Position numbers and translations under genes: made by a program | Shown here: piece after piece, positions 3,630-29,728 of the stretch | Layout: every line of letters starts with the position of its first letter | Numbering within the stretch: the stretch's first letter is position 1 | Notes under the pieces: generated by a model | The model's database searches: none | Told to the model about the DNA's origin: nothing | Seen by the model: the letters and a program-made list of their open reading frames with translations, nothing else | Source of the DNA: a virus | Reading direction: 5' to 3' (one strand) | DNA length: 36,533 nt | Virus genome (UHGV): UHGV-0135234

Positions 3630-3644
3630 TTACCGTTGAGGTAA
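3630..3644. promoter_or_regulatory. operator palindrome TTACC-N5-GGTAA (OL-proximal)
   Basis: ttaccgttgaggtaa; overlaps predicted -10/+1 of leftward promoter. Confidence 0.6.
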
Positions 3645-9146: not shown

Positions 9147-9428
9147 ATGGCTAACCTGCAACTTGCAGTCAAAGGTGAATACTTCGATGCCATGATTCGC
9201 GGAGAGAAAACGGAAGAGTATCGCTTGTGTAATGACTACTGGAATAAGCGCCTCGTTAACCGTAAGTATGACCGCCTGATTATCACAAAGGGATATCCGA
9301 AGCGCGACGATTCCAGTCGTAGAATAGACGCCCCGTATGAAGGGTATGAAATCAAGACAATCACACATCCGCACTTCGGCGATAAACCGGTAAATGTGTT
9401 CGCGATAAAGGTAAATATTGATGGCTAA
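9147..9428 (+). CDS. ASCH-domain protein
   Basis: ORF 9126..9428; ATG at 9147 with GGAGGT SD; LAVKGEYFDAMIRGEKTEEYR matches ASCH hallmark. Confidence 0.6.
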   Translation: MANLQLAVKGEYFDAMIRGEKTEEYRLCNDYWNKRLVNRKYDRLIITKGYPKRDDSSRRIDAPYEGYEIKTITHPHFGDKPVNVFAIKVNIDG

Positions 9429-9759
9429 ATCAGCAGCAGAGCGCAAAGCCGCTCAGAGAGCCAGACAAGCTGCATCTGGTGTGCGTAAGCTGGAAATTGT
9501 GCTTGATGCTCAGGAAATTGAAATGCTGGAGCGTAACTGTGCCACGCGTCGCCCCGGGCGTGCGCCTTACGAATTTGGTGAGTATATAGCGTTATTGATC
9601 CGCCAGGATGATGCACGCGTGCACGGGCGTATAAAATCGATCAGCAGAAAACGTTGCGGTAAGTGCGGCGAGAGAGTTCCAGTTAATTCATGCCCGTGTA
9701 ATGGTGACTCGCAATGCTGGGTGACTAAAGGCTGGCATGAAACGAAATTAATAGTGTGA
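9421..9759 (+). CDS. Cys-rich small protein (possible zinc-binding regulator)
   Basis: 112 aa; C-terminal CGKCGERVPVNSCPCNG; last gene before packaging operon. Confidence 0.5.
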   Translation: MAKSAAERKAAQRARQAASGVRKLEIVLDAQEIEMLERNCATRRPGRAPYEFGEYIALLIRQDDARVHGRIKSISRKRCGKCGERVPVNSCPCNGDSQCWVTKGWHETKLIV

Positions 9760-9808
9760 CATGTTACGAGTAGATTATGCATGATGAATTTGATGGGTTT
9801 TGAATACT

Positions 9809-9834
9809 GCCGCCAACTATGGCGGCTTTATTTT
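9809..9834 (+). terminator. rho-independent terminator upstream of terS
   Basis: gccgcc-aactat-ggcggc followed by TTTATTTT. Confidence 0.65.
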
Positions 9835-9845
9835 GCATGGTACTA

Positions 9846-9860
9846 TTACCACAACGGTAA
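9846..9860. promoter_or_regulatory. operator palindrome TTACC-N5-GGTAA upstream of terS
   Basis: ttaccacaacggtaa; preceded by TACTAT -10-like hexamer; direct repeat CTATTACCAC at 9843 and 9861. Confidence 0.55.
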
Positions 9861-9877
9861 CTATTACCACGGTGGTT

Positions 9878-10474: not shown

Positions 10475-11946
10475 CAGATACAGCGTTATCTCCTGAAGAG
10501 CAGTTAATCGAGGATATTGCAGGGTTCACTCACGATCCGCTTGGCTATGCCCTCTATGCGTTCCCGTGGGGGGAAGAGGGTACTGAACTGGCACATGCCA
10601 CCGGTCCACGTCAGTGGCAGGCCGATGCGTTCCGAGAGATACGTGATCACCTGCAGAATCCAGAGACGCGATATCAGCCGCTTATGCTGGCACGCGCTTC
10701 TGGTCACGGTATTGGTAAATCCGCATTCATCTCAATGCTGATCAACTGGGGCATGTCCACTTGCGAGGATTGTAAGGTCGTGGTGACCGCCAACACCGAC
10801 AACCAGCTACGAACGAAGACCTGGCCGGAAATTATCAAGTGGTCGAACCTTGCCATCACGAAAGACTGGTTTACCTGTACCGCTACCGCGATGTACAGCA
10901 ATGATCCTGGGCACGACAAGCGGTGGCGAGCTGACGCAATCCCCTGGTCTGAGCACAACACTGAGGCATTCGCCGGACTACACAACGAGCGCAAACGCAT
11001 CATCGTGGTTTTCGACGAAGCATCCAACATTGCCGATCTGGTGTGGGAGGTAGCAGAGGGTGCGCTGACGGACGAAGACACCGAAATCATCTGGGTGGCG
11101 TTCGGGAACCCGACGCGTAATACCGGGCGTTTCCGCGAATGTTTCCGCAAATATAAACACCGCTGGAAGTGTGCGCAGATTGACAGCCGGACGGTGGAAG
11201 GCACTAACAAACAGCAGTTGCAGAAATGGGTTGATGACTACGGGGAAGACAGCGACTTCGTTAAAATCCGTGTGCGCGGCATATTCCCTGATGCATCTGA
11301 ATTGCAGTTTATCCCTACCGGTCTTACTGATGAGGCAATGAAACGGGTGGTAACCGCTGCGCAGGTGGCGCATGCTCCGGTGATAATCGGTGTTGACCCG
11401 GCATATTCAGGCGTTGATGACGCGGTGATATACCTGCGGCAGGGGCTACACAGTAAGGTGCTGTGGACTGGCAACAAGACTACCGACGATCTGATTATGG
11501 CGAAGCGTATCGCTGACTTTGAAGACCAGTATCAGGCTGACGCGGTGTTCATCGACTTCGGTTACGGAACCGGTTTGAAGTCAATCGGTGATGGCTGGGG
11601 GCGTACATGGCAACTTGTTCCGTTCGGCGGTGCGTCCACTGACCCGCAGATGCTTAACAAGCGTGGGGAGATGTTCAACTCATGTAAGACATGGCTGAGG
11701 CTGGGCGGCATGCTGGATGACCAGGAAACTGCAGACGACCTGTCGGCGGCAGAGTACAAAGTTCGCGTGGACGGTAAAATCGTTATCGAACCGAAGGAGG
11801 ATATCAAGGAGCGGCTTGGGCGTTCGCCGGGTAAAGGCGATGCGCTACTGCTGACGTTTGCGTTCCCTGTGTCGAAGCGTCTGCGAATTCCCGGGCAGCA
11901 GAACCAGCAAGGCAAGGCCATCACAGATTACGATCCCTATGCTTAA
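10471..11946 (+). CDS. terminase large subunit
   Basis: 491 aa; GTG start overlapping terS stop (GTGA); Walker A-like ASGHGIGKS; position and size. Confidence 0.85.
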   Translation: MTDTALSPEEQLIEDIAGFTHDPLGYALYAFPWGEEGTELAHATGPRQWQADAFREIRDHLQNPETRYQPLMLARASGHGIGKSAFISMLINWGMSTCEDCKVVVTANTDNQLRTKTWPEIIKWSNLAITKDWFTCTATAMYSNDPGHDKRWRADAIPWSEHNTEAFAGLHNERKRIIVVFDEASNIADLVWEVAEGALTDEDTEIIWVAFGNPTRNTGRFRECFRKYKHRWKCAQIDSRTVEGTNKQQLQKWVDDYGEDSDFVKIRVRGIFPDASELQFIPTGLTDEAMKRVVTAAQVAHAPVIIGVDPAYSGVDDAVIYLRQGLHSKVLWTGNKTTDDLIMAKRIADFEDQYQADAVFIDFGYGTGLKSIGDGWGRTWQLVPFGGASTDPQMLNKRGEMFNSCKTWLRLGGMLDDQETADDLSAAEYKVRVDGKIVIEPKEDIKERLGRSPGKGDALLLTFAFPVSKRLRIPGQQNQQGKAITDYDPYA

Positions 11947-11997
11947 TCCGCTGGTGGGGATAATGTCGTTGATATCCTCTGGTGAGGATAAAACAAA

Positions 11998-12023
11998 GCC
12001 AGCTCATAGGCTGGCTGTTTGTG
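11998..12023. terminator. bidirectional terminator between convergent terL and Gp49-like gene
   Basis: gccagc-tcatag-gctggc hairpin; T-rich on minus side (TTTGTTTT). Confidence 0.5.
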
Positions 12024-12032
12024 ACATGTCAC
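12021..12032. repeat. 12-bp palindrome GTGACATGTCAC (copy 1)
   Basis: Perfect palindrome abutting terminator and stop of Gp49-like gene; identical copy at 29532..29543; near copy at 9756..9767. Confidence 0.6.
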
Positions 12033-12036
12033 GGTG

Positions 12037-12417
12037 TTATTGCTCGCTTAGCTTCTGCTTCAGCAAGTAACCTTCGAGCATCCAGATTTTGTTTACAGCA
12101 TTCTGCCGGGCAATCTTCCGACCAATTTCTGCATCAAAGTTTTCCGGGCTTGCACAGGCGCTCTCTCCGGTGACGGTGAAGCCATTCTTCAGCACCAGTA
12201 CGCAGAAAGTGAGCAACTTCAATGGTGATAAATCACGATCGCCTTCTTCTGGTTTTTCCCTGCCACAATATTCGTTGCTGGAAATGGCACCATTACGTCC
12301 ATCATAAGCAGTAAAGTAATGCTCGCTTTTAATCACGTCTTCGATGTGCTGCGGAGTGATTCTCGGAGCGGTTTTGCCTTTCTCAACGATTTCTTTTTCG
12401 ATTTGCTGGTCGTTCAT
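12037..12417 (-). CDS. Gp49-like phage protein (unknown function)
   Basis: 126 aa; AAGGTG SD; reverse-oriented inside late region; conserved block LTFCVLVLKNGFTVTGESACASPENFDAEIGRKIA. Confidence 0.55.
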   Translation of the reverse strand: MNDQQIEKEIVEKGKTAPRITPQHIEDVIKSEHYFTAYDGRNGAISSNEYCGREKPEEGDRDLSPLKLLTFCVLVLKNGFTVTGESACASPENFDAEIGRKIARQNAVNKIWMLEGYLLKQKLSEQ

Positions 12418-12615
12418 AATCTCACCTTAAAAAAATGCCCGGCGAACCGGGCGAACTGGAAGCAATGAGTTATGCCTTCCGTGGCTGTACGGGTTTACAG
12501 CATGAAGTCATCGCAATGGCGTCCTGCTGTAAAAAGGGCGGTGATAGTCCTTCAAGGGAAACCATCACCGCCAAGCACCTGGAACTTCTGGCATCACGGT
12601 CCTTAGGCGTGATTC

Positions 12616-12692
12616 TGGCGTGGCATGCAGGATTCGAACCTGCGACCAACCGCTTAGAAGGCGGTTGCTCTGTCCAACTGAGCTAATGCCAC
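12616..12692 (-). tRNA. tRNA-Arg (anticodon UCU)
   Basis: 77 nt GTGGCATTAGCTCAGTTGGACAGAGCAACCGCCTTCTAAGCGGTTGGTCGCAGGTTCGAATCCTGCATGCCACGCCA; 7-bp acceptor stem, D-arm GCTC/GAGC, anticodon loop CTTCTAA, T-loop TTCGAAT, encoded CCA. Confidence 0.9.
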
Positions 12693-13021
12693 AACGCTGA
12701 GAGCACTGGTTTGGCTCGATATCAGGTAGGGTGGAACAGCCCGCTAATATCCAATGCTCTCATCGTTGTACCCTCGTCTCTTCCGAGGCGTCACACCGAA
12801 TCGCCGGGATGGTGAATCCCCGTGCGCGGAATAAAACCGCTCGACTTGCACATTCCGGCTACCTGGTTCGTTTGCCCGAGCAAGGGAGGGTGCCCCTTAA
12901 ACGTATCCAGACCGCTATCGGCGCATGTGCCATACGCCGTACTGCTCAAAATAAAAGCTCACTCCACCTGTTCAATTTAACGACAAGCCAGTCAGGTTAG
13001 TAACCGGAATGAACTCTTTGG

Positions 13022-13036
13022 TTACCTGAAAGGTAA
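13022..13036. promoter_or_regulatory. operator palindrome TTACC-N5-GGTAA upstream of head operon
   Basis: ttacctgaaaggtaa. Confidence 0.55.
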
Positions 13037-13126
13037 TAATTTGTGCGTTAAATGTCAACTATCTACGATAAATAAATCATATGTGGTTAAATTGGTAATA
13101 ATTTAATTGCGTACGGAGTCATTGAT

Positions 13127-13333
13127 ATGTGCATGGGTAGCTCACCATCAGTGCCTGCAACACCAGAAGTTCAGGCAGCACCACAGGAGCAGGATGCCGC
13201 CGTTGTTGATGCCCGCGACGAAGAAACTCGTCGCCGTCGCGCTGCTGCTGGTCGTAGTTCTACGCTGCTTACCGGTTCTCAGGGCGACACATCAACCGCT
13301 AATACCAGCGGTAAAACGCTACTTGGTCAGTAA
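13127..13333 (+). CDS. hypothetical small protein preceding portal
   Basis: 68 aa; same initiation context (cggagtcattga + ATG) as the portal gene. Confidence 0.4.
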   Translation: MCMGSSPSVPATPEVQAAPQEQDAAVVDARDEETRRRRAAAGRSSTLLTGSQGDTSTANTSGKTLLGQ

Positions 13334-13347
13334 CCGGAGTCATTGAA

Positions 13348-15027
13348 ATGGCGGAAACAACTAAAGAGCGATTGAACAAACAGTTCGCACAACTTGAAAG
13401 CGAGCGTCAGTCGTTCGAGCCGCACTGGCGCGAGTTGAGTGATTACATCAACCCGCGTGGTTCCCGCTTTCTGACTTCTGAGGTCAACCGTAACGATCGA
13501 CGCAATACACGTATTATTGATTCGACCGGGACTATGGCGGCGCGCACTCTCGCCAGCGGCATGATGTCAGGCATCACAAGCCCCGCGCGTCCGTGGTTTC
13601 GCCTGGCTACGCCAGATCCTGAAATGATGGATTATGGCCCTGTTAAGTTGTGGCTTGAGGCGGTGCAGAACCGCATGAACGATATGTTCAATAAGTCGAA
13701 TCTCTACCAGTCTCTTCCGCAGTTATACGGAAGCCTCGGCACATACAGCACCGGTGCAATGGCGGTACTGGAGGATGACGAGGACATCATTCGCACAATG
13801 CCATTCCCGATAGGCAGTTACTACCTGGCTAACTCACCTCGTGGCAGTGTGGACACCTGTTTTCGCAAGTTCTCTATGACTGTTCGTCAGCTTGTTCAGG
13901 AGTTCGGGCTAAATAACGTCAGCGAATCTGTAAAAAGCATGTGGGAAAGCGGCACCTACGAGAAGTGGATTGAAGTGATGCATTCGGTTTACCCGAACAT
14001 TGACCGCGATACATCGAAGCTGGATAGCAAGAACAAGCCATTCAAATCGGTTTATTACGAGGTTGGCGGCGATAACGACAAGTTGTTGCGTGAGTCCGGA
14101 TTCGATGAGTTTCCAATTATGGCTCCGCGCTGGGAAGTTAACGGCGAAGATGTTTATGGATCATCGTGCCCGGGTATGCTGGCGCTTGGACCTGTTAAGG
14201 CATTGCAGCTTCTCCAGAAGCGCAAGTCGCAGTTGATTGATAAAGCCACCAATCCGCCGATGGTTGCTCCGACTTCCCTCAAGAATCAGCGCGCCTCCCT
14301 TCTTCCTGGCGACATCACGTATATCGATCAGATTACTGGTCAGGATGGCTTCAGGCCTGCTTATCTGGTTAACCCCAGTACAGCAGATTTGGTGGCAGAC
14401 ATTCAGGACACTCGTCAAATCATTAACAGCGCCTACTTTGTCGATCTGTTCATGATGTTGCAGAACATCAATACCCGCTCGATGCCTGTTGAAGCGGTGA
14501 TCGAAATGAAAGAAGAAAAACTTCTGATGTTGGGGCCGGTTCTGGAGCGTCTGAACGACGAATGTCTTAATCCTCTCATTGACCGCGCTTTCTCGATGAT
14601 GGTGCGTAAAAACATGCTGCCGCCACCGCCTGACGCGATGGAAGGCATGCCCCTGAAGGTCGAATACATTTCCGTCATGGCTCAGGCGCAGAAGTCTATC
14701 GGCCTGTCCAGTCTGGCGTCCACGGTTAACTTCATTGGTCAACTTGCGCAAGCGAAACCAGAAGCTCTCGACAAACTCAACGTTGATCAGGCGATCGATG
14801 CATTCGCTGATATGTCCGGAGTGTCTCCAACCGTCATTGTTCCGCAGGAACAGGTTGAGCAGGCTCGCCAGCAACGGGCACAGCAGCAACAGCAGCAACA
14901 AATGATGGCGATGGGGATGGCGGCGGCACAGGGTGCCAAGACGCTAAGCGAAGCTAAAACTTCGGATCCGAGTGTTTTGTCAGCTATGGCGAATGCAGTT
15001 AGTGGTCAGGGTGGGCAATCACAATGA
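13348..15027 (+). CDS. portal protein (T7 gp8-like head-to-tail connector)
   Basis: 559 aa; C-terminal Gln/Met/Ala-rich tail (QQRAQQQQQQQMMAMGMAAAQG) like the T7 portal C-terminus; position after terminase. Confidence 0.85.
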   Translation: MAETTKERLNKQFAQLESERQSFEPHWRELSDYINPRGSRFLTSEVNRNDRRNTRIIDSTGTMAARTLASGMMSGITSPARPWFRLATPDPEMMDYGPVKLWLEAVQNRMNDMFNKSNLYQSLPQLYGSLGTYSTGAMAVLEDDEDIIRTMPFPIGSYYLANSPRGSVDTCFRKFSMTVRQLVQEFGLNNVSESVKSMWESGTYEKWIEVMHSVYPNIDRDTSKLDSKNKPFKSVYYEVGGDNDKLLRESGFDEFPIMAPRWEVNGEDVYGSSCPGMLALGPVKALQLLQKRKSQLIDKATNPPMVAPTSLKNQRASLLPGDITYIDQITGQDGFRPAYLVNPSTADLVADIQDTRQIINSAYFVDLFMMLQNINTRSMPVEAVIEMKEEKLLMLGPVLERLNDECLNPLIDRAFSMMVRKNMLPPPPDAMEGMPLKVEYISVMAQAQKSIGLSSLASTVNFIGQLAQAKPEALDKLNVDQAIDAFADMSGVSPTVIVPQEQVEQARQQRAQQQQQQQMMAMGMAAAQGAKTLSEAKTSDPSVLSAMANAVSGQGGQSQ

Positions 15028-29531: not shown

Positions 29532-29543
29532 GTGACATGTCAC
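29532..29543. repeat. 12-bp palindrome GTGACATGTCAC (copy 2)
   Basis: Identical to 12021..12032; abuts terminator 29545..29568. Confidence 0.6.
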
Positions 29544-29544
29544 A

Positions 29545-29568
29545 GGCCGCTTTCGCGGCCTTGTTTTT
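29545..29568 (+). terminator. rho-independent terminator
   Basis: ggccgc-tttc-gcggcc followed by TTGTTTTT. Confidence 0.65.
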
Positions 29569-29728
29569 AACGAATGCCACCGCCACCCGGGCGGGAATCC
29601 GCAGAACGCCCACCGCAGCGGGAGCCGTCAGCAGCAGTGTCGCTGTCGTGCTGACAACGACCGGCAAAGGCCTGAGTTGAAGCTACCAGAGACAACAAAA
29701 CGAACAGTGCAGCAAATGCTTTTTTCAT
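29567..29728 (-). CDS. small secreted peptide (Sec signal peptide, 2 Cys, Gly-rich C-terminus)
   Basis: ORF 29567..29800; ATG at 29728 gives 53 aa MKKAFAALFVLLSLVASTQAFA|GRCQHDSDTAADGSRCGGRSADSRPGGGGIR; weak SD. Confidence 0.35.
   Translation of the reverse strand: MKKAFAALFVLLSLVASTQAFAGRCQHDSDTAADGSRCGGRSADSRPGGGGIR

Follow-up and report, generated by a model that had tools for sequence, protein, structure and literature searches.

Closest described systems

PF13876 (Phage_gp49_66; N4 Gp49/Sf6 gene 66) is the Acb4 family of anti-CBASS sponges, with 1,331 homologs and a structure, PDB 9E4W (Chang et al., bioRxiv 10.1101/2024.12.30.630793), and a second paper likewise treats PF13876 as the Acb4 family. 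Chang et al. found 3'3'-cGAMP to be bound by all eight of the Acb4 homologs tested, with those from Gram-negative phages binding cAA too. They also report that ligand range differs among family members and that the fold resembles that of dsRBDs. N4 Acb4 binds c-di-AMP at 111 nM and is the necessary and sufficient trigger of the guard systems Panoptes and PanDA.

The window discussed here is the whole stretch of 36,533 nucleotides analysed from UHGV virus genome UHGV-0135234. It is an epsilon15/phiV10-like (Uetakevirus) prophage, and related DNA is present in 1052 of 5426 complete E. coli genomes, about a fifth. Between its packaging and head modules lies a gene of the Acb4 family in reverse orientation, and we think it likely that the whole is best explained as an Acb4-family CBASS sponge in a conserved, repressor-controlled accessory slot of the Uetakevirus phages.

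The founding member of the family is Acb4 of Bacillus phage SPO1 (gp1.3; PDB 9E4W), which is like the window protein in belonging to PF13876, in fold, in small size and in phage origin. The two have in common the equivalents of F48, F62 and I66 and the core NGF...G.S...P.NFD.EIG, and 9E4W is the sole significant PDB match. However identity is 23-25% and the lengths are 96 aa for SPO1 and 126 aa for the window protein, which differs in having an extra N-terminal helix, an insertion of about 30 residues and a basic RK..R cluster. Its carrier, unlike SPO1, is a temperate phage of a Gram-negative host, and binding is here predicted by analogy. The Pfam namesake, Acb4 of Escherichia phage N4 (N4 gp49/gp48), is nearer, with about 49% identity in alignment, a Gram-negative host and the C-terminal motif W.LEGYLLKQ.L shared. 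N4 is however virulent, and its gene is flanked by replication genes, in an anti-signalling hotspot of the N4-like group, and not by terminase and portal genes. In the case of gene 66 of Shigella phage Sf6 the protein is near-identical, but the gene points the same way as the late operon, flanked by the lysis genes and genes 67/68, and has neither the palindrome nor the leader of hairpin and seven T that we describe below.

With regard to genomic context, the best comparison is with the anti-signalling hotspot of N4-like phages/Migulavirinae (bioRxiv 10.64898/2026.06.04.730250), where, as here, conserved core genes flank variable small cargo that includes Acb4 and Tad2. The Uetakevirus slot differs in usually holding a single ORF that is antisense to the late genes, in having ORF-precise boundaries (hairpin, seven T and SD on one side, a 12-bp palindrome on the other), in apparent direct control by the repressor, and in being carried by temperate phages. 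The lambdoid morons (the Hendrix/Juhala concept) resemble the window gene in being extra genes between modules with a terminator and presence/absence polymorphism. The window gene differs from them in lacking an adjoining promoter and in a predicted function that serves lytic growth and not the lysogen.

The acb4 gene and its product

12037..12417, minus strand: acb4 coding sequence, 126 aa, PF13876/Acb4 family (ORF with ATG start; Pfam; identity to an entry in Table S3 of Chang et al.)

This gene had been described as the only minus-strand protein gene in the 9.8-29.1 kb late block, and the ORF list and annotation bear this out. The remaining minus-strand ORFs of 90 aa or more in that block are all nested within longer plus-strand ORFs, and in the NCBI annotation of the APEC O1 prophage of E. 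coli, which is 96.6% identical, the minus strand of the late block carries this gene and a tRNA only.

The HMM search confirmed the predicted Gp49-like family, with PF13876 matching at E=3.4e-35 and 120.8 bits (the curated cut-off being 27 bits) over profile positions 1-82 of 82. The protein also matches PHROG 322; NCBIfam and PADLOC gave no match. Table S3 of Chang et al. includes UniProt A0A0H2Z1H7 (E. coli APEC O1), which is string-identical to the window protein, together with Sf6 gp66, which is one residue apart (D3G), and the phiV10 and epsilon15 proteins. It is firm from these matches that the reverse-oriented gene encodes an Acb4-family protein, and one already catalogued. The original prediction had placed it in a family of unknown function, a label that fails because PF13876 is now the family of Acb4 anti-CBASS sponges, with this exact protein in the table. 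With this gene the family, whose function was worked out in 2024-2026, gains a copy from a temperate E. coli prophage, and little else changes in this respect.

A phmmer search of PDB with the window protein gave 9E4W at E=0.007. The AlphaFold2 monomer model (pLDDT 92.4, pTM 0.82) has the elements H-H-E-H-H-E-E-H and includes what characterises the Acb4 protomer, namely three antiparallel strands with flanking helices in a dsRBD-like arrangement and a long C-terminal helix. In a Foldseek search of PDB the top 13 matches were all chains of 9E4W, with probability 1.00 and target-normalised TM of 0.55-0.70, and the next match had E=0.36.

Among the ten ligand contacts of SPO1 Acb4 three are identical in the window protein (F48, F62 and I66, present as F80, F94 and I98). 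V56 is replaced by C88 and N63, which contacts the ligand via its backbone, by D95, and K36, E49, Y57, T70 and K81 are all replaced as well. The residues kept include those of the adenine pocket, F62 and I66, and those lost include K36 and E49, which are guanine-specific. Because of the low number of identical contacts and the loss of these two residues, the ligand spectrum may differ from that of SPO1 Acb4. Among the Uetakevirus copies the insertion of about 30 residues, which lies between strands, is hypervariable, and the C-terminal 60 residues are almost invariant. Family membership is firm; ligand binding by the window protein, and the ligand spectrum of its clade, we infer from sequence.

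By homology the protein would form a homotetramer, in the Acb4 family a pinwheel whose four ligand pockets lie between protomers, that sequesters CBASS cyclic dinucleotides, namely 3'3'-cGAMP and its relatives, with c-di-AMP as a further probable ligand by analogy with the homologs from Gram-negative phages. With the signal sequestered the CBASS effector would never be activated and the lytic cycle would be completed.

The substitutions in the guanine pocket, the hypervariable insertion that sets the Uetakevirus proteins apart and the differences in ligand range within the Acb4 family would all suit a sponge of the same fold for another signal, such as cyclic trinucleotides, gcADPR of Thoeris or the cyclic oligoadenylates of type III CRISPR. 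We think this improbable, as 3'3'-cGAMP was bound by each of the eight homologs tested, N4 Acb4, with the same conserved C-terminal core motifs, binds c-di-AMP tightly, and the adenine-pocket residues F62 and I66 are conserved. More improbable still is that the protein uses its dsRBD-like fold to act on RNA and not on nucleotide signals. The resemblance of the Acb4 fold to dsRBDs is real, and where its last helix starts the window protein has R100-K101-x-x-R104, which is lacking in SPO1 Acb4 and is at the position of the [KR]-x(1,3)-[KR] motif that viral dsRBDs require to bind dsRNA. However the sequence falls firmly in PF13876 beside experimentally validated sponges, and the same basic residues are expected in the phosphate-binding pocket of a sponge, positive pockets having been reported for Acb4 models. 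A CBASS sponge is thus our preferred reading of the protein.

The slot between the terminase and portal genes

The gene has the large terminase gene on one side and the gp3/portal operon on the other, and at this conserved accessory site it is read in the direction opposite to the late genes. In phiV10 (PhiV10p03) and epsilon15 this site likewise holds an Acb4-type gene. The original prediction of an accessory insertion between packaging and head modules is upheld by the finding of unrelated genes in the same slot in related phages. The relatives listed here all have their cargo in the same gap and on the same strand.

Klebsiella phage ST512-KPC3phi13.3: Tad2 homolog (PF11195; E=4e-16 to solved Tad2 structures)
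SPC32H: 138-aa membrane protein
65FD: 143-aa Cys-rich protein
Tyrion and BUCT554: phrog_4846-related proteins
ST11-OXA245phi3.2: 93-aa protein
BUCT711: 263-aa coiled-coil protein
SPNIS2: decayed acb4

A search of IMG/VR with the conserved upstream element GGGCATTTTTTTAAGGTGA gave 120 loci, and the 113 complete first ORFs were clustered. There were nine clusters, of which the largest are Acb4-type (61 loci) and phrog_4846-type (31 loci, 27%), followed by the 65FD type (5), an 86-89-aa family (4), Tad2 (3), the SPC32H type (2) and three more families with 2, 2 and 1. The slot usually has one ORF and rarely two. As in a known anti-defence hotspot, variable small genes lie between core genes, and Acb4 (61) and Tad2 (3) are recognised among them through Pfam and PDB.

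Alignment of the boundaries shows that conservation reaches the SD on one side and restarts at 'CACC GTGACATGTCAC' on the other. Comparison with Sf6 gene 66 is informative here, as the two genes agree at 367 of 377 nucleotides and have unrelated flanks, with the homology beginning 3 nt before the ATG and stopping 7 nt before the stop codon. Homology thus all but coincides with the ORF, from which it follows that the unit of exchange is approximately the ORF and that the palindrome belongs to the Uetakevirus backbone. We considered a cassette system like that of integrons and rejected it, as the palindrome stays with the backbone and is absent beside the near-identical Sf6 copy, and the slot has no recombinase gene.

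In the case of the other cargo, the phrog_4846-type proteins (31 of the 113 loci) range from 61 to 201 aa and have a common C-terminal domain, '...NLYNMKLQCL...AINAAFDKITF'. The '...YSPAEAFESGY' domain of the 86-89-aa family corresponds to the N-terminal portion of PHROGs 872 and 9467, in which Tad2 and Acb4 are its fusion partners. There are also uncharacterised families of 110 aa and 97 aa. The uncharacterised families have no Pfam or PDB match, and PDB sequence searches with three of them gave nothing significant. We regard them as candidate counter-defence proteins.

It is possible, if on balance doubtful, that the gap between TerL and portal is a dedicated counter-defence slot under repressor control, with ORF-for-ORF exchange between fixed boundaries. 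If so, the uncharacterised cargo would be new anti-defence proteins, foremost the phrog_4846 family and the 86-aa '...YSPAEAFESGY' domain, and the palindrome, which marks three conserved gene ends in each genome, would function in regulation or recombination. A literature search found no published description of the slot. We see it as a new instance of something already known in kind, of moderate value as a source of candidate counter-defence genes. It is sharply bounded and can be found by sequence, and in it at least two sponge families (Acb4 and Tad2) alternate with about seven uncharacterised small proteins, so that searching the slot offers a cheap route to such candidates.

The 3' boundary

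12021-12032, no strand: 12-bp palindrome GTGACATGTCAC, 4 nt past the acb4 stop, the conserved 3' boundary of the slot
11997..12016, minus strand: terminator hairpin between TerL and acb4, followed by TTGTTTTATC, which passes the terminator scan

The palindrome had already been noted at the end of the gene, and the count supports its significance. With at most one mismatch there are three sites in the window, one of them with a mismatch, against 0.04 expected, and the same three positions are found in epsilon15, so that it is not due to chance. In 90 of the 113 IMG/VR loci the palindrome (at most two mismatches) starts 4 nt past the stop of the cargo gene, and in 9 it starts 27 nt past it, whatever the cargo.

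The hairpin had been taken for a bidirectional terminator. On the minus strand this holds, as the scan is passed there, but on the plus strand the same hairpin has the tail GTTTGTGA, with just 4 T, and fails.

The copies of the palindrome are at 9756-9767, 12021-12032 and 29532-29543 in the window and at 2142, 19517 and 39612 in epsilon15, and in both phages each copy is at or just past a stop codon and ahead of a terminator hairpin. The genes that precede the third copy are wholly different in the two, with products of 137 aa in the window and 64 aa in epsilon15 with no similarity, which suggests that there may be a second variable slot at that site.

The leader

12422..12428, minus strand: Shine-Dalgarno AAGGTGA, 4 nt before the ATG, kept in relatives whatever the cargo
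12429..12452, minus strand: T2, terminator-like hairpin GCCCGG-TTCG-CCGGGC (GCCCGGTTCGCCGGGC) followed by A and seven T (terminator scan)
12494..12533, minus strand: H2, leader hairpin TTTACAGC...GCTGTAAA (single-sequence fold; RNAalifold)
12527..12572, minus strand: T1, terminator-like hairpin with a 14-bp stem, then CTTTTTACAG, downstream of the tRNA (terminator scan)
12616..12692, minus strand: tRNA-Arg (anticodon TCT), 198 nt upstream of acb4 (ARAGORN; Rfam RF00005, 73.3 bits)

The gene has its own SD, as predicted, reading AAGGTGA at 12428..12422, and the tRNA noted beside it is indeed there, on the same strand. The tRNA-Arg is optional in the slot, being present in 48 of 86 related loci and absent from 38. 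T1 and T2 were both overlooked in the original prediction. T2 (hairpin proper 12452..12437) adjoins the SD directly, and its equivalent in epsilon15 is annotated as a rho-independent terminator.

The leader of 221 nt folds far better than shuffled controls (z=-3.76), and RNAalifold with 30 diverse sequences recovered T1, H2 and T2, with 7 of 31 pairs maintained through two-sided changes. T1 (hairpin proper 12572..12537) has three covarying stem pairs, H2 has two together with G-U pairs that fit the minus strand alone, and in T2 two stem pairs are changed on both sides in 7 of the 30 sequences (GG/CC to AC/GT). Several of the G-U pairs of the leader can form on the cargo-sense strand alone. A search of 11900-13400 against Rfam at E<=1 gave the tRNA as its sole match, so the structured leader belongs to no described RNA family. 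We also considered T2 as a possible attenuator, and found no alternative pairing that would compete with its stem.

In one IMG/VR copy whose Acb4 is identical, the T2 loop is inverted, with GCCCGG-CGAA-CCGGGC in place of GCCCGG-TTCG-CCGGGC, a hairpin-loop flip. Further upstream, the minus-strand leader beyond the tRNA (12693-13021) has blocks conserved across genera, including a hairpin at 12925-12945 around GGCGCATGTGCC (GGCACATGTGCC in relatives), which has an ACATGT core in common with the boundary palindrome. In the equivalent of this region, relatives lacking the tRNA-Arg have tRNA-like T-arm remnants or small ORFs. Part of it is annotated in epsilon15 as an RNase III site, and Rfam finds nothing there.

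Candidate promoter, operator and probable timing of expression

13022..13058, minus strand: candidate leftward promoter with -35 TTGACA at 13058..13053, a 17-nt spacer and -10 TACCTT at 13035..13030

This candidate, about 600 nt upstream of acb4, is the sole conserved promoter-like element on the minus strand. Six diverse relatives keep both hexamers (TTGAC invariant) and vary freely in the sequence of the spacer, and the -10 falls within the operator-like TTACCTGAAAGGTAA (13022-13036). As a -10, TACCTT is weak, and the candidate was not called by the promoter scan. An operator-like site is upstream in 83 of 86 IMG/VR loci, nearly always with TTGAC preceding it at one fixed distance, and the homologous site in epsilon15 is, by GenBank annotation, a repressor binding site.

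Nearer to the gene, the promoter scan of the minus strand over 12418-12615 found nothing, and alignment of the leaders, with a manual check of the 80-nt block between T1 and T2, gave no -35/-10 pair conserved across relatives. As T2, with its seven T, adjoins the SD, there is no space for a promoter beside the gene. The scan did give a sigma-70 site at 12386..12359, inside the coding sequence, which we regard as due to chance.

The operator motif TTACC-N5-GGTAA occurs 10 times in the window against 0.08 expected. The sites are at 3630, 3692, 4404, 6735, 6797, 9846, 13022, 30462, 31502 and 31882; they head most transcription units and correspond to the annotated repressor operators of epsilon15. 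Direct contact of the prophage repressor with almost all operons, late ones among them, is therefore possible.

We envisage a leftward transcript, under repressor control, that would run from the promoter through the optional tRNA-Arg, T1, H2, T2 and the cargo ORF to the palindrome and terminator. Expression of acb4 in the lysogen is unlikely, because the -10 of the only conserved promoter-like element overlaps the repressor operator, and we infer that the gene is silent in the lysogen and expressed early after infection or induction. Such timing would suit a counter-defence protein, and it would spare the lysogen's own CBASS and avoid tripping Panoptes and PanDA. There remains a difficulty in that T1 and T2 intervene between the sole recognisable promoter and the SD, which counts against the supply of a sponge needed in stoichiometric amounts. 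Passage through them might come about by antitermination, by partial read-through, or by processing after which the hairpin stays as a 5' stabiliser. The locus thus poses a puzzle of regulation, as a temperate phage must silence a guard-triggering sponge in the lysogen and activate it early, and the promoter/operator and hairpins make this open to experiment.

The original prediction described the organisation as moron-like, and this stands in part. The gene has its own terminator (12016..11997) and the cargo varies among relatives, but there is no promoter adjoining the gene. In the classical sense a moron would be an autonomous cassette expressed from the repressed prophage to the benefit of the lysogen, for example through superinfection immunity or fitness. 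The reverse orientation, the downstream terminator and the variable presence among relatives would be in keeping with this, as would the alternative cargo SPC32H_003, which resembles membrane proteins often used for exclusion. We nevertheless think it quite unlikely, as the T2 hairpin and the SD leave no space between them for a promoter, a repressor operator overlaps the conserved promoter further upstream, and Acb4-type sponges disable host CBASS and, expressed alone, trigger Panoptes and PanDA. Constitutive expression would be costly to the lysogen because its own CBASS would be disabled and its guards triggered, and as a sponge that disables CBASS serves the phage in lytic growth, prophage expression of the moron type is unlikely. 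We conclude that the gene is probably not a classical moron, given the lack of an adjoining promoter and a predicted function that serves lytic growth. A late virion or assembly protein is barely credible. The site between packaging and head genes could suggest one, as could the near-identical Sf6 gene in a late operon downstream of the lysis genes, but the window gene is on the strand opposite to the late genes, unrelated genes substitute for it in sister phages with the same virion module, and the established function of the family is that of a soluble sponge. We thus retain the reading of a CBASS sponge expressed early in lytic growth.

Other features of the window

The motif ATGTGGTT(T/A) is on the plus strand at about 6780, 13081 and 31930, in each case just upstream of a rightward operon (replication-region genes, gp3/portal and tailspike respectively), and may be a shared promoter or activator element.

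The gene at 9418-9759 on the plus strand, directly before the late genes, encodes a 113-aa protein that has a C-terminal Cys-rich motif resembling a Zn-ribbon, matches phrog_536 'transcriptional regulator' and is 78% identical to epsilon15 gp49. Its stop overlaps the first palindrome. The product is a candidate late-gene regulator.

The TerS ORF as called mechanically has a TTG start at 9800, and has within it a terminator-like hairpin at about 9811-9836 and operator-like repeats at 9846-9875. The ATG at about 9880 (MPAEP...), which corresponds to the start in epsilon15, is more probably the true one.

Just beyond the late block there is a second reverse-oriented accessory gene, a small ORF at 29567-29728 on the minus strand, which is positionally analogous to epsilon15 gp19. 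It encodes 53 aa from the ATG (MKKAFAALFVLLSLVAS...), has an N-terminus resembling a signal peptide, and is annotated as hypothetical in APEC O1.
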